Shown here: positions 1-10,963 of the stretch, piece after piece
Layout of the letters: every line of letters begins with the position of its first letter
How positions within the stretch are numbered: position 1 is the stretch's first letter
Source of the DNA: a virus
Lineage: Duplodnaviria; Heunggongvirae; Uroviricota; Caudoviricetes
DNA length: 10,963 nucleotides
Reading direction: 5' to 3' (one strand)
Virus record (IMG/VR): IMGVR_UViG_2617270976_000014
Location: 1 to 10,963 of that record
Notes under the pieces: model-generated
The model's database searches: none
Seen by the model: only the letters and a program-made list of their open reading frames with translations
Told to the model about the DNA's origin: nothing
Translations under genes and position numbers: made by a program

Positions 1-1734
1 ATGAAAGAAAAAAAATTCGTTAGTGAGCTTTTCCTTGAAAATGGGCAGTTTATTTTAGTCGGTTTGACAGGTCGAACTGGTTCTGGTTGCACAACAACAG
101 CTAATATTCTTGAAAACGAAAAAACAGTCTTCCCTGATGTAAGTAAATTACAGGGGTTTTACAAGGGATTGGATGTCCATCGTTATAATATAGTTAAAAA
201 ATTCGCAGAAAATCACTGGGAAAATTTTTACTCAATTAAGGTGAGTGACCTAATCTCAGCGTATCTTCTGATGTTAACAGTTGAGGAAGCTTCTGAATTC
301 ATTCTATCATCTAATAAATTTATCAGTAAAGAGCATTTAGATATTGTATTAACTTTTGGTGTATTCTCAGATAATCTCATTTTGACAAGATTTAAAAATG
401 TAATTGAGAATTTGCTTGATCATAATAGTGAATTGAAGTTTGATAAAAAAACGATTAATAAATTTATATCAATTTTGAAGTTAGTTAGAAAATTTACTAA
501 AGAATTCAAAGCTGAACTAAATGAGATAAACTCAAATTTATATGTTTCAGCCTATCAGTTAGCAGGTAAGTCAATTAGACGTCGTGGGCGTATTGAAGTC
601 GATTTTGAAGATAAAGAGTTTATGCCTAAATCTGTTTTTCATTTGCCGGAAACTATTAATAGGGTTATTAAATTAATAAGAAAAAGCAAAAGAGATAACG
701 CATTAATTGTCATAGATGCTATTAGAAATCCATATGAGGCAAAATTTTTTAAGGATAGATATTCTGCATTTCATTTAATGTCAATAAATGCCCCAGATGA
801 ACATCGAACAAACTATTTGCGGAAACTACATAAGTTTTCAGAAAAGCAGATAGAGGAAATAGATTCTGTAGAGTCAGGTAAAGGTGATAACTCTTACAAA
901 CATCTCACCAATCCAAATGTAACTAAATGTATTGAACTATCAGATATACACATTTTTAACCCAAAAAATGAATTTGATAATGACAATATTTTAAAAGCAC
1001 AATTAGCGTGGTACATCGCACTGATGAAGCATCCTGGTCTGATAACACCTACTGCAATGGAAAGGGTTATGCAAGTTGCGTATACGGTAAAATTAAACTC
1101 TGGCTGTATATCTAGACAGGTGGGAGCTGTAGTAACTGATGGTGATAATTCAATAAAATCAGTTGGTTGGAATGATGTTGCCAACGGTCAGATTCCTTGC
1201 TCTATGAGATCTCTAGATGGCCTAATGAACGATTTTGATGAAAAAACGTACAGTCATTATGAGAGAAATAATAGTTCTTTCAGAATTAAAGCTAATGAGA
1301 AACTCTTAAATTTTAGGGCGATAGATAAAACTGGTGATATTTATAGAGGCAGGAACTTATCTTATTGTTTTAAAGATATACATAATGATCTTGATAAAGA
1401 GAAAAAAGGTAATCAAGTTCATACACGTGCATTACATGCTGAGGAAAACGCATTTTTACAACTTGCAAAATATGGTGGTATTGGCGTTCTGGGGGGGAAG
1501 TTGTATACAACTGCCAGTCCCTGTGAGTTGTGTGCGAAAAAAGCTTATCAGTTAGGTATATCTGAAATTGTATTTATTGATCCCTACCCAGGTATAGCTC
1601 AAGACCATATTATTAATATAGGTAGTAAGCCACCAAAGTTAATACAATTTAGAGGCGCAATTGGGAAGTCATATCACCGACTTTATGAGCAAATTATCCC
1701 GATAAAAGATGAGTTAGAATATCTCCTTGAGTAG
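1..1734 (+). CDS. P-loop kinase-like / cytidine (dCMP) deaminase fusion protein, AvcD/DcdV-type dCTP-deaminase antiphage protein-like (577 aa)
   Basis: Uninterrupted 577-codon ORF starting ATG at 1, stop TAG 1732-1734. N-terminal glycine-rich loop GLTGRTGSGCTT (Walker-A-like, Cys where the Lys is expected). C-terminal zinc-deaminase signature HAEENA...PCELC (HxE plus PCxxC). About 30% GC, unlike the adjacent prophage. Upstream region lies outside the window. Confidence 0.7.
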   Translation: MKEKKFVSELFLENGQFILVGLTGRTGSGCTTTANILENEKTVFPDVSKLQGFYKGLDVHRYNIVKKFAENHWENFYSIKVSDLISAYLLMLTVEEASEFILSSNKFISKEHLDIVLTFGVFSDNLILTRFKNVIENLLDHNSELKFDKKTINKFISILKLVRKFTKEFKAELNEINSNLYVSAYQLAGKSIRRRGRIEVDFEDKEFMPKSVFHLPETINRVIKLIRKSKRDNALIVIDAIRNPYEAKFFKDRYSAFHLMSINAPDEHRTNYLRKLHKFSEKQIEEIDSVESGKGDNSYKHLTNPNVTKCIELSDIHIFNPKNEFDNDNILKAQLAWYIALMKHPGLITPTAMERVMQVAYTVKLNSGCISRQVGAVVTDGDNSIKSVGWNDVANGQIPCSMRSLDGLMNDFDEKTYSHYERNNSSFRIKANEKLLNFRAIDKTGDIYRGRNLSYCFKDIHNDLDKEKKGNQVHTRALHAEENAFLQLAKYGGIGVLGGKLYTTASPCELCAKKAYQLGISEIVFIDPYPGIAQDHIINIGSKPPKLIQFRGAIGKSYHRLYEQIIPIKDELEYLLE

Positions 1735-1765
1735 AAATATTATACTCATCCTTCCTGAGGTAAGC

Positions 1766-1799
1766 TTCAAGATGATCAATAAATATTGATCATCTTGAA
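1766..1799. repeat. Perfect 16-bp inverted repeat (TTCAAGATGATCAATA-AA-TATTGATCATCTTGAA) with two GATC sites, 32 nt after the deaminase stop
   Basis: Read directly from the sequence; the arms are exact reverse complements with a 2-nt spacer. Could be a terminator hairpin or a protein-binding site. Confidence 0.8.
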
Positions 1800-2114
1800 A
1801 GTTAATTGCAGAGTCAAACTAGTAGTCAGACTGAAGCTTCGATAAAAAATGTTTTTGTTTTTTTCATTTTCTAATGACTGTTTTTTATTAGTTTCTTTTT
1901 AATGTTGCAATGCTATGCTTTTCTACTATTTTTGAATGTGGCATCTTTGATGTTTTTATACAACAAAGATGAGGGCTTATAGGTTTTTTTGTGATGTAAA
2001 AATTATCTTATTCTATAAATAAAACCTAAACTCAGTCTGAAGAGTTAAATGAGAATGGATAACCTGCTGAATATTATATTTGTAAATAGTTTGAGTTTGT
2101 TTTCATAAGTTACT

Positions 2115-3131
2115 CTATCTTAAGTTGCATAAAGGGTTTTTAGTTACCGCATCTTCAAGGTGATCGGGCGAAAAGTGGGCGTAAATCATCGTCATTTTTA
2201 TATCGGCATGGCCCAGAATATCGCGCAGCACCAGTATGTTTCCGCCATTCATCATAAAATGGCTGGCGAATGTATGACGTAGCACGTGAGTGCATTGGCC
2301 CTCTGGCAGCTCGATGCCAGCTCGCTTTACTGCTCGTTCAAAGGCTTTTCTGCACGGGGTGAATAGCTTCCCTCTGTTCTTGGGGAGTTCGTCATACAGA
2401 TCTTGAGATATCGGCACGGTGCGGTTTTTCTTACCCTTCGTCTTGGTATAAGTGATGCGGTATTTAGATAACTGATGGCCCTGCAGGTTTTCAGCTTCAC
2501 TCCAGCGTGCGCCGGTGGCCAGGCATATTTTTGCAATCAAAAGCAGACTGGGGTTTTGAGAATCAGCGCAGGCATCTAGCAGACGTTTAATTTCTTCCGA
2601 GGTCAGGAACGCCAGTTCCCCCTCAGCGATTTTAAATGTTGGCAGCCCGGCGAGAGGATTTGGTGCTGACCAGTGGCCTAGTTTTTTCAATGTGCCGAAA
2701 ACCGATGATAGGTTACGTTGCTCAAGATTCACCGTGCGTGGTTTTACTGGCGACATTAGTGTGCCGTCTTCGTTACGAACGTCACCTTTTAACCGTGCTT
2801 CGCGGTATTTCGTAAAGTCACCGGCTGTCAGTTCTGAGGCGATGGGGTCGCCTAGACCATTACAGATAATTCTAAGTTTCGCCATGAGGCGCTTGGGGTC
2901 TGCGAGTGTCTGACCATACAGGGAATACCAAAGCTCAATTAATTCTGATAGGCGTCGCCGATCATCCTTTTCACCCAACCACGGTTTTTTATTCACTTCT
3001 TCCATTGTGAAGCTTTCAAAAGCAATGGCTTCGCCTTTCGTAGCAAATTGCTTACGCACGCGCTTACCATTGCGTCCATTGGGATAGCACTCACACAACC
3101 ATTTTCCGTTCGGCTGTTTTCTGATGGTCAT
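2115..3131 (-). CDS. int: Tyrosine recombinase, P2/186-family phage integrase (338 aa)
   Basis: N-terminus MTIRKQPNGKW...YPNGRNGKRVRKQF is P2-family-like. C-terminal catalytic residues in context: ATGARWSE (Arg), HVLRHTFAS (His-x-x-Arg), MIYAHF (Tyr). Its start lies 1 nt after the stop of the upstream repressor gene (TGA-T-ATG on the minus strand). Confidence 0.9.
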   Translation of the reverse strand: MTIRKQPNGKWLCECYPNGRNGKRVRKQFATKGEAIAFESFTMEEVNKKPWLGEKDDRRRLSELIELWYSLYGQTLADPKRLMAKLRIICNGLGDPIASELTAGDFTKYREARLKGDVRNEDGTLMSPVKPRTVNLEQRNLSSVFGTLKKLGHWSAPNPLAGLPTFKIAEGELAFLTSEEIKRLLDACADSQNPSLLLIAKICLATGARWSEAENLQGHQLSKYRITYTKTKGKKNRTVPISQDLYDELPKNRGKLFTPCRKAFERAVKRAGIELPEGQCTHVLRHTFASHFMMNGGNILVLRDILGHADIKMTMIYAHFSPDHLEDAVTKNPLCNLR

Positions 3132-3132
3132 A

Positions 3133-3765
3133 TCAAAGGCTCTTAATGATTTTCAGTGCGCGGCCTACTACCTCAATGTCATCTAGGCCACACTCAAACG
3201 ATGAATCATCCTGATGCACTACTAATTTGTTTCCCGGAAGTCGAGTCAATTTAACAATGCTTTTTATCCCGTCAATATCGACTAACCACATACCATTTAC
3301 TGGTGGTGTTTGGTTGCGATCTATTAAATAAGAATCACCAGAAGTAGTCACCAGCAGTAGGTTGCTTGAGTCTGAGGGGAGTATGCTGCTATCAATGATT
3401 GCTTTTCCAGCATCGACCAATAAACCACCGTTGAGAGTCGCCTTGTCAATTTCAGGAGATACTAGTTCAGAAAGAGGTACAACCTTGCTGGAGTTCACGG
3501 AATTGATATTTTTTTTAGGTTCAATGTTTGGACCTGGCTCCCCCTGTCCGGTGGTTAGCCACAGTAAAGAAACTCCTGTTTCCAAGGCGCACTGAATCAC
3601 CCACTCTGCAGGAAAACTATCTCTTAAGTATCTGTTTGCCATGGTGCTTTTTGATGCGCCTAAGTGATCGCAAAGTTGCTGTCTGGACTTGAAATCATAG
3701 GCTGCCATTAGTCTATGGATAGCCTCTCTTCCCCCTGTATTCTCTCCAACCTTTACCTGTATCAT
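3133..3765 (-). CDS. cI: CI-type immunity repressor, phage 186-like (210 aa)
   Basis: Sits directly upstream of int on the same strand and divergent from the early operon. HTH-like segment SRQQLCDHLGASKSTMANRYL near the N-terminus. Size and position match 186 CI. Confidence 0.7.
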   Translation of the reverse strand: MIQVKVGENTGGREAIHRLMAAYDFKSRQQLCDHLGASKSTMANRYLRDSFPAEWVIQCALETGVSLLWLTTGQGEPGPNIEPKKNINSVNSSKVVPLSELVSPEIDKATLNGGLLVDAGKAIIDSSILPSDSSNLLLVTTSGDSYLIDRNQTPPVNGMWLVDIDGIKSIVKLTRLPGNKLVVHQDDSSFECGLDDIEVVGRALKIIKSL

Positions 3766-3777
3766 TTTTTAATCCTG

Positions 3778-3835
3778 TTGACGTATCAAATATTGGATCG
3801 TAGTATCTCGATGCATCAAATATTGAATCAAGTAA
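3778..3835 (+). promoter_or_regulatory. Lytic/lysogenic switch region: candidate early promoter (-35 TTGACG 3778-3783, 17-bp spacer, -10 TAGTAT 3801-3806) flanked by two copies of an ATCAAATATTGRATC operator-like repeat (3785-3799 and 3814-3828)
   Basis: Hexamers and spacing read from sequence; the near-identical 15-mer occurs twice, 29 bp apart, between divergent cI and the Apl-like gene. Confidence 0.45.
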
Positions 3836-3884
3836 AACGAGATAAAACGACGTAAACCAAACCTTAATCGGGAGATACTGCACT

Positions 3885-4127
3885 ATGAGCACTGATATTT
3901 CAATTCGTGTACCAAAAGAGATGGCTACGCCTGCAGAGTTCGCGGAATGGGAAGGTATCTCCCGCGGCTCTGTGTATCAAAAAATTCATCATGGTCAGCT
4001 TGCTAAATACATGGTCAAGAAAGAAAAAAACAAAGGCCGCGTAAGCCTGCGTTATTTAATGTACAAAACCGATCAGGTCCGTGAATCCCTCGGTCATTCC
4101 AACTTCCGCGTCATTGTTGGTAAGTAA
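3885..4127 (+). CDS. Apl/Cox-like small DNA-binding protein (excisionase / switch regulator), 80 aa
   Basis: First gene of the rightward operon, immediately after the switch region; RBS GGGAGA upstream of the ATG; size and position match 186 Apl / P2 Cox. Confidence 0.55.
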   Translation: MSTDISIRVPKEMATPAEFAEWEGISRGSVYQKIHHGQLAKYMVKKEKNKGRVSLRYLMYKTDQVRESLGHSNFRVIVGK

Positions 4128-4159
4128 GTTCAATTATGAGAACTTTCTAAGGGGGTAGC

Positions 4160-4669
4160 ATGTTTGATTATAAGATTTCCAAACACCCGCATTTTGATGA
4201 AGCCTGTAGAGCTTTTGCACTTCGTCACAATATGGCGAAGCTGGCAGAACGTTCAGGAATGAATGTCCAGACTCTGCGAAACAAACTCAACCCAGATCAA
4301 CCGCATCAGCTCAATGCGCCAGATATCTGGCTACTTACCGATCTGACGGAAGATTCAACGCTGGTAGACGGTTTTCTGGCACAGATTCACTGCCTGCCAT
4401 GTGTACCGATTAATGAGGTGGCAAAAGAGAAACTGCCACATTACGTCATGAGTGCAACCGCAGAGATCGGGCGTGTTGCTGCAGGTGCGGTATCTGGCGA
4501 TGTAAAAACCAGTGCAGGTCGTCGTGATGCTATCAGCAGCATTAACTCTGTTACACGACTGATGGCGTTAGCTGCTGTTTCATTGCAGGCCCGTTTACAG
4601 GTTAATCCTGCGATGGCAAGTGCAGTTGATACTGTAACCGGCCTCGGTGCTTCATTCGGTTTGCTGTGA
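4160..4669 (+). CDS. cII: CII-like transcriptional activator (169 aa), phage 186 CII-like
   Basis: RBS AGGGGG 6 nt upstream of ATG; 169 aa, the length I recall for 186 CII; HTH-like segment MAKLAERSGMNVQTLRNKL; second gene of the early operon. Confidence 0.6.
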   Translation: MFDYKISKHPHFDEACRAFALRHNMAKLAERSGMNVQTLRNKLNPDQPHQLNAPDIWLLTDLTEDSTLVDGFLAQIHCLPCVPINEVAKEKLPHYVMSATAEIGRVAAGAVSGDVKTSAGRRDAISSINSVTRLMALAAVSLQARLQVNPAMASAVDTVTGLGASFGLL

Positions 4670-4676
4670 GGTGCTT

Positions 4677-4877
4677 ATGCTGACGAAAGAACCATCATTT
4701 GCATCGCTGCTGGTAAAACAAAGTCCGGCAATGCACTACGGTCACGGCTGGATCATGGGTGAGGATGGTAAACGCTGGCATCCGTGCCGTTCACAAGATG
4801 AATTGCTGGCAGAACTATCTACGAAAAAACGGGGGAACAAATGGCTATTGAAGGCGCTGCGGCGACTGTTCCATTAA
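4677..4877 (+). CDS. Small early protein of unknown function (66 aa), at the position of 186 fil
   Basis: ATG at 4677 preceded by GAGGTG RBS that overlaps the cII stop; the ORF-track start at 4647 is likely an upstream extension. Confidence 0.4.
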   Translation: MLTKEPSFASLLVKQSPAMHYGHGWIMGEDGKRWHPCRSQDELLAELSTKKRGNKWLLKALRRLFH

Positions 4878-5182
4878 GCCCCGGTGAACGCCTGAATGGA
4901 CTTAATCACATAGCGGAATTAAGGGCGAAAGTTTTTGGCCTGAATATTGAGTCAGAGCTTGAGCGGTTTATTAAAGACATGCGTGATCCACGGGATATCA
5001 ATAACGAACAAAATAAACGAGCACTGGCAGCCATATTCTTTATGGCAAAAATTCCGGCTGAACGTCATAGCATCAGCATCAATGAGCTGACCACTGACGA
5101 AAAGCGGGAGTTGATTAAAGCAATGAATCATTTTCGTGCAGTGGTGAGCTTATTTCCCAGACGGCTAACCATGCCGAATTAA
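4841..5182 (+). CDS. Hypothetical phage early protein (113 aa)
   Basis: ATG preceded by GGGGGAA RBS; same strand as the operon; overlaps the 3' end of the preceding ORF by 37 nt in another frame. Confidence 0.45.
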   Translation: MAIEGAAATVPLSPGERLNGLNHIAELRAKVFGLNIESELERFIKDMRDPRDINNEQNKRALAAIFFMAKIPAERHSISINELTTDEKRELIKAMNHFRAVVSLFPRRLTMPN

Positions 5183-5249
5183 CCAACTAATGAAATTAAT
5201 GGCGTAAACCCGCCGAGCATCCCTTTATCTAAATTCAGGAGAATTGATT

Positions 5250-5483
5250 ATGCGTAATATTGAAATCCTCACGACTAAAACCGGACCGGATGATGCAGGG
5301 CTTAATATTTTACTGACAGAGGCTCGTCTGGAAGAACGCCGGGCAAGGGCTGAAGCAATGGCAGCTCGCCTTGATAGCCTGGCGTGTCATATCTCATCCC
5401 GTCAGCTAAACCACGTGGAAGCGGCAGAACTGCTGCGTGTGACTGCTGAAGCAATCCAGAACGAAGCGCAGGAGATCCACTAA
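5250..5483 (+). CDS. Hypothetical phage early protein (77 aa)
   Basis: ATG at 5250 preceded by AGGAG; its stop overlaps the next start (TAATG). Confidence 0.45.
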   Translation: MRNIEILTTKTGPDDAGLNILLTEARLEERRARAEAMAARLDSLACHISSRQLNHVEAAELLRVTAEAIQNEAQEIH

Positions 5484-5710
5484 TGGCTGATGCAATGGAT
5501 CTCGTACAGCAGCGCGTTGAAGAAGAACGCCAGCGCCATATCCGTGCTGCCCGTGCCAAAACACCGGGCGTGTCTCGCGTGCTTTGCATTGAGTGTGAAG
5601 CGCCAATTCCGCCAGCACGCCGCCGTGCCATTCCGGGTGTGCAGCTTTGCATTACCTGCCAGGAAATTGCAGAGCTGAAAGGCAAACATTACAACGTAGG
5701 TGCTGTATGA
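5483..5710 (+). CDS. TraR/DksA-family C4 zinc-finger protein (75 aa)
   Basis: Two CxxC pairs with the spacing of the TraR/DksA finger (CIEC...CITC); RBS AGGAGA; start overlaps the preceding stop. Confidence 0.75.
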   Translation: MADAMDLVQQRVEEERQRHIRAARAKTPGVSRVLCIECEAPIPPARRRAIPGVQLCITCQEIAELKGKHYNVGAV

Positions 5711-6564
5711 GCACCATCCTGAAATGGGCGGGAAATAAAACCGCCATTATGTCCGAACTGAAAAAACACCTTCCTGCTGGCCCGCGACTGGTTGAACCTT
5801 TCGCGGGTTCCTGTGCTGTGATGATGGAGACGGATTACCCCAGCTATCTTGTTGCGGATATTAATCCTGATTTAATCAACCTCTATAAAAAGGTTGCTGC
5901 TGATTGTGAGGCATTTATATCTCGTGCCAGAGCTTTATTTGAGGAAGCAAACAGGGAGGTGGCTTATTACAACATAAGGCAGGAGTTTAATTACTCCACT
6001 GAAATTACTGATTTCATGAAAGCGGTATATTTTCTGTATCTCAATCGTCATGGTTACCGTGGGTTATGTCGCTATAACAAGAGCGGGTATTTCAACATTC
6101 CCTACGGTAATTATAAAAATCCGTATTTCCCTGAAAAAGAAATTCGCGCATTTGCAGAGAAAGCCCAGCGGGCAACGTTTATCTGCGCCAGCTTTGATGA
6201 AACGCTGGCGATGTTGAAGGCGGGGGATGTGGTGTATTGCGATCCGCCGTATGACGGCACGTTTTCCGGTTATCACACTGACGGCTTCACTGAAGATGAC
6301 CAGTATCACCTGGCATCCGTTCTTGAACATCGGTCATCAGAAGGACATCCGGTCATTGTTTCTAACAGTGACACATCCCTGATCCGTTCGCTGTATCGCA
6401 ATTTTACTCACCACTACATCAAGGCAAAACGCAGCATCGGCGTAGCAGCTGGTGAGAGTAAATCTGCAACAGAAATCATCGCTGTTTCTGGGGCGCGCTG
6501 CTGGGTGGGATTTGATCCTTCGCGTGGCGTGGATAGTTCTGCCGTGTACGGAGTGCGTGCATGA
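5707..6564 (+). CDS. dam: DNA N6-adenine methyltransferase, Dam family (285 aa)
   Basis: N-terminal ILKWAGNK, AdoMet-binding EPFAGSCAV and catalytic DPPY (VYCDPPYDG) motifs; start ATG overlaps the upstream stop (ATGA) and its stop overlaps the start of gene A. Confidence 0.85.
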
Positions 6565-8975
6565 GCCATGCTGATATGAACAACTGCAGCGGCTTTAACG
6601 AGGCCGCCGCAGCATTCTCATGGGACAGCCCGAAAAAGGCTATTAACCCTTATCTGGATCCGGCAGAAGTTGCGCCGGTTTCTGCGCTTTCAAACCTGAT
6701 CACTCTGTACGCTGCCGATAACGAGCAGGAACAACTGCGCCGCGAGGCACTCAGTGATCAGGTCTGGGAGCGTTATTTCTTTAATGAATCCCGTGATCCT
6801 GTCCAGCGCGAAATGGAGCAGGATAAGCTCATTAGCCGGGCAAAGCTGGCGCATGAGCAGCAGCGTTTTAATCCGGATATGGTCATTCTGGCGGACGTCA
6901 ACGCCCAGCCTTCCCATATCAGCAAGCCGCTGATGCAACGTATTGAATACTTCAGCAGCCTGGGCAGGCCAAAGGCTTATTCCCGCTATTTGCGTGAGAC
7001 GATTAAGCCATGTCTGGAACGACTGGAGCATGTACGCGAGAGTCAGCTATCCACTTCTTTTCGCTTTATGGCAAGCCATGAAGGGCTGGACGGCCTGCTG
7101 ATCCTGCCTGAAATGAGTCAGGATCATGTGAAACGCCTGTCCACCCTGGTAGCTGCGCATATGAGCATGTGCCTTGATGCAGCTTGTGGCGATTTGTATG
7201 CCACCGATGACGTTAAGCCAGAAGAAATCCGCAAGACATGGGAAAAGGTGGCGGCGGAAACCCTGCGTCTGGATGTCATCCCACCTGCGTTTGAGCAACT
7301 CCGTCGGAAAAGAAACCGCCGTAAACCCGTGCCCTATGAACTCATTCCGGGTTCGCTGGCGCGTATGTTGTGCGGCGACTGGTGGTATCGGAAATTATGG
7401 AAGATGCGTTGCGAATGGCGGGAAGAGCAGTTGCGCGCTGTTTGCCTGGTCAGCAAAAAAGCATCTCCTTATGTCAGCTATGAAGCCGTGATGCATAAAC
7501 GTGAGCAGCGCCGTAAGTCGCTGGAGTTTTTCCGTTCTCATGAACTGGTGAACGAAGACGGCGACACGCTGGACATGGAGGATGTGGTAAACGCCAGCAG
7601 CAGCAACCCTGTGCATCGCCGCAATGAGATGATGGCCTGTGTTAAAGGTCTGGAGCTTATCGCGGAAATGCGCGGTGACTGCGCCGTTTTCTACACTATC
7701 ACCTGTCCGTCGCGTTTCCATTCCACGCTAAATAACGGCAGACCAAACCCGACCTGGACAAACGCGACGGTAAGACAAAGCAGCGATTATCTGGTCGGCA
7801 TGTTTGCTGCATTTCGTAAGGCGATGCACAAAGCCGGGTTGCGCTGGTATGGCGTGCGGGTGGCTGAGCCGCATCATGACGGCACAGTTCACTGGCACCT
7901 GTTGTGTTTCATGCGCAAAAAAGACCGCCGTGCCATCACTGCATTACTGCGTAAGTTTGCCACCCGTGAAGACCGCGAGGAGCTGGGCAATAACACTGGG
8001 CCGCGCTTTAAGTCTGAGTTGATTAACCCGCGCAAAGGAACGCCGACAAGCTACATCGCGAAATATATCAGTAAGAACATTGACGGTCGTGGTCTGGCTG
8101 GCGAGATCAGCAAGGAAACGGGTAAATCTCTGCGTGATAACGCTGAATACGTGAATGCCTGGGCGTCTCTGCATCGTGTTCAGCAATTCCGCTTCTTTGG
8201 TATTCCGGGGCGTCAGGCTTACCGTGAACTTCGCTTGCTGGCTGGTCAGGCGGCAAGGCAACAGGGTGACAAAAAAGTAGGTGCGCCGGTACTGGATAAC
8301 CCGCGTCTTGATGCCATTCTGGCTGCTGCTGATGCTGGTTGTTTTGCCACCTACATCATGAAGCAGGGCGGCGTACTGGTTCCCCGTAAATATCACCTCA
8401 TCAGAACCGCTTATGAAATCAACGAAGAGCCGACCGCCTATGGCGATCACGGCATTCGTATTTATGGCATCTGGTCACCCATTGCAGAGGGCAAGATCTG
8501 CACTCATGCAGTGAAGTGGAAAATGGTTCGTAAAGCCGTTGACGTTCAGGAGGCGGCAGCCGACCAGGGCGCTTGCGCCCCTTGGACTCGTGGCAATAAC
8601 TGTCCCCTTGCTGAAAATTTGAACCAACAAGGGAAAGACAAATCAGCTGATGGGGATACCAGGACGGACATTACCCGCATGGATGACAAGGAGTTGCACG
8701 ATTACCTGCACAGTATGAGCAAAAAAGAGCGCCGGGAACTGGCTGCAAGGTTACGCCTGGTGAAACCGAAACGGCGTAAAGACTACAAACAGCGAATTAC
8801 AGACCATCAGCGACAGCAGCTCGTCTATGAACTGAAGTCCAGAGGATTTAATGGCAGCGAGAAAGAGGTCGATTTACTCCTTCGCGGCGGCAGTATTCCG
8901 TCAGGAGCAGGCCTGCGTATCTTCTATCGGAACCAGCGTTTGCAGGAAGATGATAAGTGGCGAAACCTGTATTAA
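6561..8975 (+). CDS. A: Rolling-circle replication initiator endonuclease, P2/186 gpA family (804 aa)
   Basis: HUH motif (TVHWHLLCF) and paired catalytic tyrosines ([11 protein letters not shown]); size and position after the early genes match P2 A. Confidence 0.85.
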
Positions 8976-9067
8976 TTACGCGGGTTAACAATTCGTGCTC
9001 TTAATAATACCAGGCATATCAGGCTAATGAACGTAAAAAAACGTTTTACATCAGTAAGATTATTATA

Positions 9068-9087
9068 TACTGTAAATATAAACAGTG
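9068..9087 (+). promoter_or_regulatory. LexA (SOS) box TACTGTAAATATAAACAGTG
   Basis: CTGT-N8-ACAG with an AT-rich spacer, close to the consensus TACTGTATATATATACAGTA; lies 41 nt upstream of the ATG at 9129 and overlaps plausible -10 hexamers. Confidence 0.6.
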
Positions 9088-9128
9088 GTTATGCATACAG
9101 TATTGCTTGTGGTGTCATAGGAGGAAAG

Positions 9129-9317
9129 ATGCAGGACTATTTTTTGGAGTCTTTGAAGCTCCAGCGCATTGATTTTTTTCTTAAGCTTGTAGCGGCTAGT
9201 GAGTGTAGTGATGAAGAGAAGGGGCTGGCTTTGCAGTGGGTTTCTGAACTGACAGATGAACTCATGGCAAAAATCAGAACCCACGAATACAACCGCTCAA
9301 TGGATGTCATCAGCTGA
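9129..9317 (+). CDS. Small SOS-controlled protein (62 aa), possible Tum-like antirepressor
   Basis: Strong RBS AGGAGG before the ATG at 9129; LexA box just upstream; the position after A and next to a DinI-like gene mirrors 186 tum. No sequence match to Tum could be verified by eye. Confidence 0.4.
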   Translation: MQDYFLESLKLQRIDFFLKLVAASECSDEEKGLALQWVSELTDELMAKIRTHEYNRSMDVIS

Positions 9318-9327
9318 GGTGACCTTT

Positions 9328-9561
9328 ATGCGCATTGAAATAATGATCGATAAAGAGCAGAAGATTAGCCAGTCTACCCTGGACGCCCTTGAATCCGAGC
9401 TTTACCGCAATCTGCGCCCCCTGTATCCCAAAACGGTAATTCGCATCCGCAAAGGTAGCTCTAACGGTGTGGAACTGACCGGACTGCAACTGGACGAAGA
9501 AAGAAAACAAGTGATGAAGATTATGCAGAAGGTGTGGGAAGACGACAGCTGGCTGCATTAA
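9328..9561 (+). CDS. dinI: DinI-family protein (77 aa)
   Basis: MRIEIMIDKEQ...DALESEL...IMQKVWEDDSWL aligns by eye with E. coli DinI (MRIEV...DALAGEL...ILQETWESADDW); RBS GAGGTGA upstream. Confidence 0.75.
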   Translation: MRIEIMIDKEQKISQSTLDALESELYRNLRPLYPKTVIRIRKGSSNGVELTGLQLDEERKQVMKIMQKVWEDDSWLH

Positions 9562-9720
9562 GAAAAGTTGCTGGCGTCTGAACTTGGTTCTGGCGTCAGC
9601 AAGGTTGAACAACGAGTACAGTGAGGCGTTAGGTGTGGCGTTTATTTGATGAGTGAACGCCCGTTCTGCGACAGGTTCGGAGATTAAGGTTGAAACTACG
9701 GGCAAAATACCATCTTTTTC

Positions 9721-10146
9721 CTACTTAATTGAGTCCAGTAACAAGTTACAGTTACTCTCATTGTAGAGAGAACGAGCAATTAGTGTTACCTGCTTTCCAT
9801 TCATTCCCGGCTTATCCCATAACACAGCTTCTTGCGACGCCACAAATTCAGCATAATCAATTATGCGTTGTTCGTGATCTGGTTCCTCATAGCCAAAGTA
9901 TGAGAGCGCATCGTTGTAAGCGTGGTAAGCTGCTTTCTGTAATATCTTGATATCGGCTGTAGGTACTTGCTCCGTGTAGCTAGGATCTAATTGTGTGCTA
10001 CTGCCATAGAATGCACATGAAAGGTAAGATATTGATTTCTGTTGAGCTTTAGTTCCTTTCTCATAGTTTTTAGCTGTTACCGCCTGAACAGGGACGCTAA
10101 CAAAGCTTGCAACCAGAATTAAAATTAATACGTAAAAGCTTTTCAT
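9721..10146 (-). CDS. Secreted or periplasmic protein of unknown function (141 aa), likely prophage cargo gene
   Basis: N-terminal signal peptide (MKSFYVLILILVASFVSVPVQA, AxA-type cleavage site, no lipobox Cys); GAGG RBS 7 nt upstream; two Cys in the mature part; about 40% GC; opposite strand to the phage operon, between dinI and the cos-like motif. Confidence 0.6.
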   Translation of the reverse strand: MKSFYVLILILVASFVSVPVQAVTAKNYEKGTKAQQKSISYLSCAFYGSSTQLDPSYTEQVPTADIKILQKAAYHAYNDALSYFGYEEPDHEQRIIDYAEFVASQEAVLWDKPGMNGKQVTLIARSLYNESNCNLLLDSIK

Positions 10147-10419
10147 TTTGACCTCAGCCGAAACGTTAGAGAGACTATCGAAATTTGTAAAACCCGTGGC
10201 GATTCAGTTTGAGATCCTCCCCCTTACATGATTTTTAATCAAATATATGCTTTTGTAAGCATACCTGTTAACCGAATTATTTATTTTTAGAGATCTTCCG
10301 ACATACTGATTATGCCCGCTGAGGAGTTCACCTTGCGTAAAGTCCGATTCGCTTTACTCGTCTGTGCATGTCTATGCTGCATGAGATTGCATGATCGTTT
10401 GAGGATCGTTTTTGCTAAG

Positions 10420-10446
10420 GCCCGCCAGAACTGGCGGGCTTTTGCG
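10420..10446 (+). terminator. Rho-independent terminator (GCCCGCCAG-AA-CTGGCGGGC followed by TTTTGCG)
   Basis: GC-rich inverted repeat (8-9 bp stem) immediately followed by a T-run on the plus strand. Confidence 0.6.
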
Positions 10447-10488
10447 TAGATCATGCTCCTGCATGAAAACCACTACATAAAGCGGGCA

Positions 10489-10507
10489 GGCGTGGCGGGG
10501 ATACGAG
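10489..10507. other. Candidate cos site of a P2/186-family phage (GGCGTGGCGGGGATACGAG)
   Basis: The first 13 nt match the P2/186 cohesive-end sequence as I recall it (GGCGTGGCGGGGAAAGCAT for 186); position after the A-tum-dinI region is where cos is expected in an integrated prophage. Recalled from memory, not verified. Confidence 0.4.
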
Positions 10508-10632
10508 CGCGCGCTCATGGTTGAATTAATGAAATTATGGTGTTAAATAGGCTAGCTTTTTAAGTCGTGAATATTCAATTTTTCAACTCATTTTTTTCAT
10601 AGGGAGGAGTAATTGACATGGTTATGTTAGTG

Positions 10633-10963
10633 GGTGATGCTGCCAACTTACTGATTTAGTGTATGATGGTGTTTTTGAGGTGCTCCAGTGGCTTCTGTTT
10701 CTATCAGCTGTCCCTCCTGTTCAGCTACTGACGGGGTGGTGCGTAACGGCAAAAGCACCGCCGGACATCAGCGCTATCTCTGCTCTCACTGCCGTAAAAC
10801 ATGGCAACTGCAGTTCACTTACACCGCTTCTCAACCCGGTACGCACCAGAAAATCATTGATATGGCCATGAATGGCGTTGGATGCCGGGCAACAGCCCGC
10901 ATTATGGGCGTTGGCCTCAACACGATTTTACGTCACTTAAAAAACTCAGGCCGCAGTCGGTAA
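10633..10963 (+). mobile_element. IS1 insertion sequence, left end (IRL GGTGATGCTGCCAACTTACTGAT) continuing beyond the window
   Basis: Canonical IS1 left inverted repeat at 10633-10655 followed by insA; the window ends at the insA stop, so insB and the IRR are not visible. Confidence 0.9.
10688..10963 (+). CDS. insA: IS1 transposition regulator InsA (91 aa)
   Basis: GTG start; translation [40 protein letters not shown]... matches IS1 InsA as I recall it. Confidence 0.95.

Follow-up and report, generated by a model that had tools for sequence, protein, structure and literature searches.

The stretch of DNA analysed here, hereafter the window, comprises positions 1 to 10,963 of the IMG/VR virus record IMGVR_UViG_2617270976_000014 and represents the early half of a P2/186/Fels-2-type (Peduoviridae) prophage. 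Between its SOS genes and its cos site lies a small minus-strand gene (9721-10146), annotated as WP_000834899.1 in E. coli genomes, whose product is predicted to be exported. This gene is best read as a stand-alone phage moron or lysogenic-conversion gene, as it occupies an insert between sites that are adjacent in relatives and has a base composition unlike that of the surrounding phage. Morons in the cos-proximal hotspot of P2 are a well-known kind of element; the protein family encoded by this one is uncharacterised. By analogy with other phage systems, we tentatively propose envelope-stage protection of the lysogen, with superinfection exclusion as the leading case, as a function that is plausible but somewhat short of probable.

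The bounds of the low-GC insert (Table 1) follow from a four-way alignment of the window with phage vB_EcoM-813R9, Fels-2 and E. coli AR_0085, in which the 150 base pairs (bp) at 10365-10514 form invariant columns. Phage vB_EcoM-813R9 represents the empty site, with the 3' flank of the DinI-like gene joined directly to the conserved cos block. In Fels-2, the same sub-slot holds STM2726, a plus-strand lipoprotein gene with an LTGC lipobox. The cos core itself, GGCGTGGCGGGGATACGAG at 10489-10507, aligns to the annotated cos of phage 186 (93 bp, 77% identity, expectation value (E) 6e-16) when the joined right and left ends of 186, spanning that cos, are taken as the subject; the original prediction had placed the gene between the replication/SOS genes and a candidate cos, and this location is thereby upheld. 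A megablast search of 9000-10650 against 50,697 phage records retrieved 60 relatives (Escherichia, Klebsiella, Salmonella Fels-2 and others) that match the flanks only and cover at most 48% of the query, the insert being swapped for other genes in Fels-2 and the Klebsiella phages. Nor did tblastn with the protein return any match in these records. Among complete E. coli genomes, only 101 of the 1,073 with this DinI region carry the insert, in all cases at least 99% identical and chromosomal. The gene is thus accessory, as had been predicted, and not a core gene with a structural role in related phages. Its predicted AT-richness is equally borne out: the gene has a GC content of 40.4% (38.7% at third codon positions, GC3), against 48.8% for the prophage core (2115-9561) and a GC3 of 57.6% for gpA. 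All members of the protein family are encoded at 35-45% GC.

How variable this position is becomes apparent from the IMG/VR contigs that share the same cos block. Of the 84 loci with a locatable DinI gene and cos, 33 are empty, 11 contain an STM2726-type lipoprotein gene and six contain the gene under study, while the remaining loci hold more than 20 other inserts, several of which encode proteins with strongly hydrophobic N-termini. Defence genes are found among these alternatives (DarT with Macro at locus L042, a KAP NTPase at L096), as is a three-ORF (open reading frame) insert at L116. Given this occupancy, the sub-slot from DinI to cos (9562-10514 in the window; loci L042-L159) is hypervariable in its own right, a hotspot within the P2 hotspot and distinct from the cos-to-portal slot. 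The whole gpA-gpQ interval of P2-like phages has been defined as a defence hotspot (Rousset et al. 2022, PMC9122126), and in Table S5A of that study WP_000834899 appears at least 32 times, labelled 'hypothetical' and accompanied by varying partners. The gene described here falls within this interval, lying between gpA (6561-8975) and cos, with the portal gene following in intact relatives.

The original prediction had further likened the position to that of the tin and old genes, which the hotspot study and the topology of the P2 record both support. In the latter, both genes flank cosR on its A side, are read against the early operon and have their own promoter next to cos, so that slot and strand both match; neither gene is essential, and the annotation calls them lysogenic-conversion genes. 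The likeness does not extend to sequence, since tblastn gave no P2 match, or to the kind of protein. P2 Old is annotated as an AAA-family ATPase and exonuclease, whereas the present protein is small, exported and without an enzymatic signature. Tin and Old are cytoplasmic.

The gene has its own ribosome-binding site and a promoter-like region upstream and runs against the early and SOS operons, the latter a short operon (a 62-amino-acid ORF and a DinI/Tum-like gene) that converges on it; both the opposite orientation and the gene's own ribosome-binding site had been predicted. The context of this site, GAGGTCAAAATG, is identical in the Klebsiella orthologs, with AAGGTC in Hafnia and GAAATC in a lambdoid copy at the same site. 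Further upstream, a consensus scan gave a candidate promoter (TTAACA-18-TATATT) with 10 out of 12 consensus matches. The element downstream of its hexamers, TTTGATTA(A/C)AAAT, is kept in the window and in the Klebsiella and Hafnia copies. An inverted repeat, ATGCTT-ACAA-AAGCAT, is located within the promoter spacer (10248-10263, minus strand); it is kept in the orthologous Klebsiella cassette, is not found in Hafnia, and could be an operator. Against orthologs of 90%, 77% and 77% identity, the ratio of nonsynonymous to synonymous substitution rates (dN/dS) of the gene is 0.175, 0.187 and 0.260, respectively, which identifies it as a real protein-coding gene under purifying selection.

What moves from phage to phage is hardly more than the ORF itself. 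Identical copies of WP_000834899.1 are found beside six unrelated cos-to-portal cargos, namely an ABC-3C (ABC-three-component) system, a hypothetical protein with a PIN-domain protein, a lone hypothetical protein, PRTase with DprA, an RNA-binding-domain protein and DUF4145. Three orthologs extend the range. The first (P0002, 90% identity) occurs in Klebsiella aerogenes and others in the same slot of P2-like prophages, in which no DinI gene is called. In K. aerogenes and related prophages (L167-L169) it directly adjoins the 62-amino-acid SOS-operon ORF, and homology to the window ends exactly at the DinI stop codon (window 9561). The second (P0004, 77%) comes from a P2-like prophage of Hafnia alvei, in which tail gene S lies on one side of it and baseplate gene V on the other. 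The third (P0003, 77%) belongs to a lambdoid-type prophage and follows its tail-fibre genes, where the prophage adjoins the trp genes of the host. Across these contexts, the common DNA shrinks to the ORF and 31-107 bp upstream. More distant relatives, of 24-40% identity, occur in the accessory part of a lambdoid-type prophage close to its integrase (L040), beside integrases (L041, L161), on a contig with ParA/ParG and terminase (L160), on a small island of short ORFs (L162) and on 12 plasmids of 105-231 kb, which are mostly non-mobilizable and of which at least one carries phage-type genes. All the contexts examined proved to be mobile elements, the majority of them recognisable as derivatives of phages, and no neighbour is common to all.

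These contexts bear on two alternative explanations. One is that the gene encodes a sensor, anchor or other accessory component of the adjacent cos-to-portal defence system, or that it is a chance ORF or pseudogene. The gpA-gpQ interval has indeed been treated as one hotspot, in which the gene is listed together with its neighbours (PMC9122126). Nonetheless, since the identical protein is accompanied by six different and unrelated systems, it is not part of any of them, and membership in the adjacent system was rejected on this ground. In addition, the gene also occurs in phages without such an adjacent system, and cos and the conserved backbone block separate it from the systems in question. 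A chance ORF is excluded by the dN/dS of 0.18-0.26 and by the invariant Cys, Trp, Tyr and Asn residues across relatives of 24-40% identity. Both forms of this explanation are effectively excluded by the data.

The other is that the gene serves the life cycle of the phage itself, its product being for example a periplasmic modulator of lysis timing or of endolysin or spanin action. The Hafnia ortholog, within the late region and co-oriented with tail genes S and V, fits such a role, as does a product predicted to be periplasmic, where lysis proteins act. The S-V position, however, looks like an accessory slot itself, because two further ORFs without Pfam or PHROG assignment lie between these tail genes; presumably, P2 orf30 lies between S and V as well. 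Moreover, around 90% of the otherwise syntenic E. coli prophages lack the gene and none of the phage records searched contains it, its positions and orientations differ between phages, and in the window it opposes all lytic operons. We therefore regard a life-cycle role as very unlikely.

The encoded protein has the build of a small soluble periplasmic protein. Its N-terminus is laid out as MK / FYVLILILVASFVSV / PVQA with predicted cleavage before V, comprising a 15-residue hydrophobic core (peak hydropathy 3.35) and small residues at -3 and -1; beyond residue 25, hydropathy does not exceed 0.6, which leaves no further transmembrane segment. A lipobox is absent; Cys first occurs at residue 44. 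This call of a Sec signal peptide is based on sequence rules (hydropathy and n/h/c layout) and agrees with what was originally predicted. All 15 aligned family members share the same exported build, with a cleavable non-lipoprotein signal peptide, a mature part of 109-122 amino acids and an isoelectric point (pI) of 4.5-5.9. The AlphaFold2 model from the 15-sequence alignment has a predicted local distance difference test score (pLDDT) of 88.3, with values of 55-57 over residues 1-20 and mostly above 90 in the mature domain, and places helices at residues 25-50, 63-83, 91-110, 120-130 and 133-140. Invariant across the alignment are C44, W110, Y128, N132 and C133, and each member has exactly two Cys residues in its mature part, these being the two invariant ones. 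The most conserved stretch of the alignment is IDYAEyVAsQEAvLWD, and the conserved motif of the protein itself reads IDYAEFVASQEAVLWDKPGMN. Where at least 80% of members agree, the column is mostly Ala, Leu, Val, Ile, Phe or Tyr, besides W110, Q105, N116, N132, the two Cys and a few others. The lack of conserved polar residues of a catalytic type, together with the small all-helical build, suggests a non-enzymatic binder.

In agreement with the original prediction, which assigned no family by eye, no known family could be assigned by profile or fold searches. The sole match in PHROGs is phrog_7437 (unknown function), over the full length and with an E of 4e-99. The protein has no match in Pfam or NCBIfam (E ≤ 0.1) or in PADLOC, and a Pfam scan of the 15 members produced scattered matches only (E ≥ 0.013). 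PDB sequence searches with two profiles retrieved nothing except one dipeptidase match at an E of 1.2, and no match at E ≤ 0.001 was present in BFVD (viral folds). The literature search found no paper mentioning WP_000834899. Its family comprises seven clusters at 90% identity among 5.8 billion proteins, and an exhaustive HMMER profile search of 1.84 billion representatives gave 17 matches, three of which are long repetitive proteins (E 4.5e-5 to 1.2e-4). All members with a source organism name stem from Enterobacterales and are called 'hypothetical'. From these searches, the family appears to lack detectable relatives outside itself.

We propose the following mechanism. In the lysogen, the gene would be transcribed from its own promoter, without dependence on the phage operons that LexA and CI control. 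The encoded protein would be exported by Sec, cleaved after VQA and folded in the periplasm into an acidic helical bundle of about 13 kDa, pinned by a C44-C133 disulfide. As a non-enzymatic binder, the mature protein would then neutralise an envelope-stage step of an incoming competitor. In the leading case, a superinfecting phage would be blocked between adsorption and genome entry, for instance through binding to a component of its tail tip or tail lysin, or to an entry factor on the periplasmic side. Such a block would serve prophage and host alike.

Three arguments favour superinfection exclusion. First, orf97 of phage 186 (L171, 3105-3836) occupies the same sub-slot, between tum/DinI and cos, and according to the 186 record its expression from a plasmid blocks 186 infection. 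Second, exported proteins or proteins with a hydrophobic N-terminus recur in the sub-slot. Third, the surrounding hotspot is enriched for anti-phage genes (PMC9122126). The comparison with Orf97 is one of position. With its hydrophobic N-terminus, consistent with transmembrane segments, Orf97 is likely located in the envelope; it has 243 amino acids, appears membrane-anchored, is co-oriented with tum and is transcribed from the LexA-controlled p95, whereas the present protein would be soluble and is encoded on the opposite strand. Orf97 has no Pfam family match either. It has the same length as Fels-2 STM2726 (243 amino acids) and is not homologous to it. STM2726-type lipoproteins (phrog_1353, unknown function) resemble the present protein as exported, low-GC occupants of the sub-slot, yet they are lipoproteins, encoded in Fels-2 on the plus strand, uncharacterised and unrelated in sequence; neither STM2726 nor the neighbours of the orthologs gave an informative family match.

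For the mechanism, the closest parallel comes from another phage. Spackle of phage T4 (Sp, gp61.3) is a helical protein that acts as a stoichiometric inhibitor of the tail lysozyme of the incoming phage. Like the product predicted for the gene described here, it is a small phage-encoded protein whose signal peptide is cleavable and whose mature part contains Cys residues; the T4 record annotates it as periplasmic. It would be the best functional and mechanistic analog of the mechanism proposed above.

Several points weigh against exclusion by such a protein. The argument, which takes up the superinfection-exclusion or envelope-modifying role raised in the original prediction, is positional and by analogy only, and homology to either analog was rejected: BLASTP with 186 Orf97 gave only fragments at E > 1, and Spackle (PDB 6x6o, 7cn6) shows neither sequence nor fold similarity. 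With 17 matches in 1.84 billion representatives, the family is rare, whereas an exclusion gene of broad use would perhaps be met with more often; by the patterns used, no relative was found among one-genome-per-species representatives. The C44-C133 disulfide is predicted from the invariance of the Cys residues. Likewise, expression in the lysogen is predicted from the candidate promoter, the hexamers of which are only partly kept (CTAACA/TATGTT in K. aerogenes), and no clear intrinsic terminator is found 3' of the gene (structure z -0.30).

The same small, acidic, exported build could also serve immunity. According to this explanation, the protein neutralises a basic peptidoglycan hydrolase or another toxin delivered to the periplasm, such as a type VI amidase or muramidase effector, a colicin M- or pesticin-type bacteriocin or host lysozyme, and phages spread it as an 'orphan immunity' gene. 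The Tai4/Rap immunity proteins against type VI amidases are likewise small, periplasmic and all-helical, and the present family is acidic with one conserved Cys pair. The scores against Tai4/Rap are, however, within noise, and there is no corresponding Pfam match. At three loci, a distant relative lies within a run of three to six uncharacterised small proteins that are exported or are lipoproteins (L041, 1861-4229; L162, 4852-8917; L160, 6672-8438), with an adjoining small tyrosine recombinase in L041 and L162 and ParA/ParG in L160; the arrangement in L041 and L162 resembles acquired immunity arrays. On one plasmid, an LprI-family lysozyme inhibitor is encoded 3 kb from a relative. Against this, no immunity or lysozyme-inhibitor family of Pfam matches any of the 15 members even at E ≤ 1, and the profiles of Ivy, PliC/MliC, PliG and LprI/DUF1311 match neither the protein (E ≤ 0.1) nor these members (E ≤ 1). 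No effector or toxin gene lies next to any examined copy, unlike for Tai4/Rap, and none of the examined carriers is a type VI locus, all being mobile elements of phage type or of other kinds. Overall, we consider immunity of this kind unlikely. Within the runs, the 157-amino-acid neighbour in L041 and the 165-amino-acid neighbour in L162 are homologous to each other (32% identity, E 2e-22), and both end in LYxxxNCxLL like the present family. Paralogy with the exported neighbours (L041, L161, L162) was not accepted, as only the 18-column C-terminal LYxxxNCxLL motif aligned (probability 17%).

Finally, the gene may be a conversion factor for host fitness or virulence in the manner of the bor and sodC morons, for example a periplasmic stress chaperone or binder that helps the bacterium survive acid, bile, oxidative or envelope stress in the gut or host. 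Stress chaperones are known among the small helical proteins of the periplasm, and moron architecture and low GC content suit such a factor, as does its carriage by human, animal and food E. coli of many backgrounds. Nor does any match to NCBIfam or PADLOC defence models tie it mechanistically to phage defence. Yet the protein resembles neither Spy/CpxP/HdeA-type chaperones nor any Pfam family, and its slot is enriched for anti-phage cargo (PMC9122126). The rarity of the family and its confinement to phage-type and other mobile elements fit conflict-driven turnover better than a general fitness trait. In our assessment, a fitness role is rather improbable.

Table 1. Positions of the gene, its signals and the other features of the 10,963-nucleotide window.
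Feature	Position	Strand	Evidence or remark
Coding sequence, 141-amino-acid precursor, ATG start, stop codon included	9721..10146	-	= RefSeq WP_000834899.1 'hypothetical protein'
Signal peptide, residues 1-22 (MKSFYVLILILVASFVSVPVQA), predicted signal-peptidase I site VQA/VT	10081..10146	-	hydropathy and n/h/c layout
Mature protein, 119 amino acids, acidic (pI 5.06), predicted five/six-helix bundle	9724..10080	-	alignment and AlphaFold2 model
Shine-Dalgarno GAGG, 5 nucleotides 5' of ATG	10152..10155	-	sequence
Candidate promoter region (tentative)	10231..10271	-	TTAACA-18 nucleotides-TATATT at 10271..10242, then conserved TGATTAAAAAT element
Low-GC insert (moron cassette), ~730 bp	9633..10360		four-way alignment; GC 40.6%
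Integrase	2115-3131	-	
CI repressor	3133-3765	-	
CII	4160-4669	+	
TraR/DksA-like protein	5483-5710	+	
Dam methylase	5647-6564	+	
gpA replication endonuclease	6561-8975	+	PF05840, E 3e-126
LexA box TACTGTAAATATAAACAGTG of SOS operon	9068..9087	+	CTGT-N8-ACAG match at 9070-9085
62-amino-acid SOS-operon ORF	9129..9317	+	phrog_698 (unknown function); WP_001154434.1
DinI/Tum-like gene, 77 amino acids, left neighbour of insert	9328..9561	+	PF06183, E 1e-22; phrog_189; RefSeq 'DinI-like family protein'
Backbone block, 150 bp	10365..10514	+	GC-rich inverted repeat and TTTT (10420-10443), cos core (10489-10507)
DUF4145 hotspot gene start, ATG 10618, broken after ~15 nucleotides by IS1	10618..10963	+	IS1 left end 10633; InsA ORF 10688-10963

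The remaining features of the window (Table 1) complete the picture of the prophage. Matches to CTGT-N8-ACAG are expected by chance only 0.12 times in the window, and the counterpart of the LexA box in the record of phage 186 is the annotated p95 promoter with a putative LexA site 5' of tum. An imperfect hairpin, GCTGGCGTCTGAAC...GTTCTGGCGTCAGC, is present at 9568-9603, 3' of the stop codon of the DinI-like gene. It belongs to the phage backbone, as it is found at the empty site of vB_EcoM-813R9 too. Read on the minus strand, the hairpin precedes a U-rich tract (AACUUUUCUU), so that it may terminate both the SOS operon and the converging transcript of the moron; t95a of phage 186 offers a comparison for its role as SOS-operon terminator.

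Beyond cos, the junction between DUF4145 and IS1 is absent from every complete E. coli genome in the collection. In E. coli isolate F95, the DUF4145 gene is intact and followed by the portal gene. The late half of the prophage may have been displaced or lost. At the other end, just outside the integrase end of the prophage, the window encodes an anti-phage dCTP deaminase of 577 amino acids (1-1734, plus strand, 32.8% GC), with full-length matches to NCBIfam NF041025 (E 2e-127), PADLOC dCTPase (E 2e-145) and phrog_8118. The same deaminase-integrase junction is present in about 20 complete E. coli genomes, and in NCTC9038 a truncated second integrase and an IS3-family element precede the deaminase gene. 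With this gene beside the integrase, the attachment end of the prophage is thus flanked by a defence gene as well.

The hotspots of P2-like prophages have been mined for immune systems, and the resulting catalogues centre on cytoplasmic nucleases, NTPases and toxins. The gene described here is merely 'hypothetical' in the published hotspot table and is recognised by no defence-finding model. It makes a clean single-gene candidate that is cheap to test: 141 amino acids, a predicted export signal, six independent partners and at least three kinds of phage carrier. If exclusion proved false, attention would shift to immunity against interbacterial toxins or to host-fitness roles of phage-borne periplasmic proteins. 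If it proved true, a soluble periplasmic protein would join the short list of envelope-stage exclusion mechanisms and point to the other exported proteins of the sub-slot. It is even conceivable, though on balance doubtful, that the protein is the founding member of a new family in which single genes encode anti-phage or exclusion factors acting in the periplasm. These would be soluble exported binders that act after adsorption and before genome entry and that P2-like, lambdoid and phage-plasmid-like temperate phages trade as bare ORFs. In that case, defence finders centred on the cytoplasm would be overlooking a store of envelope-level defences on the DinI-to-cos side of the P2 hotspot.

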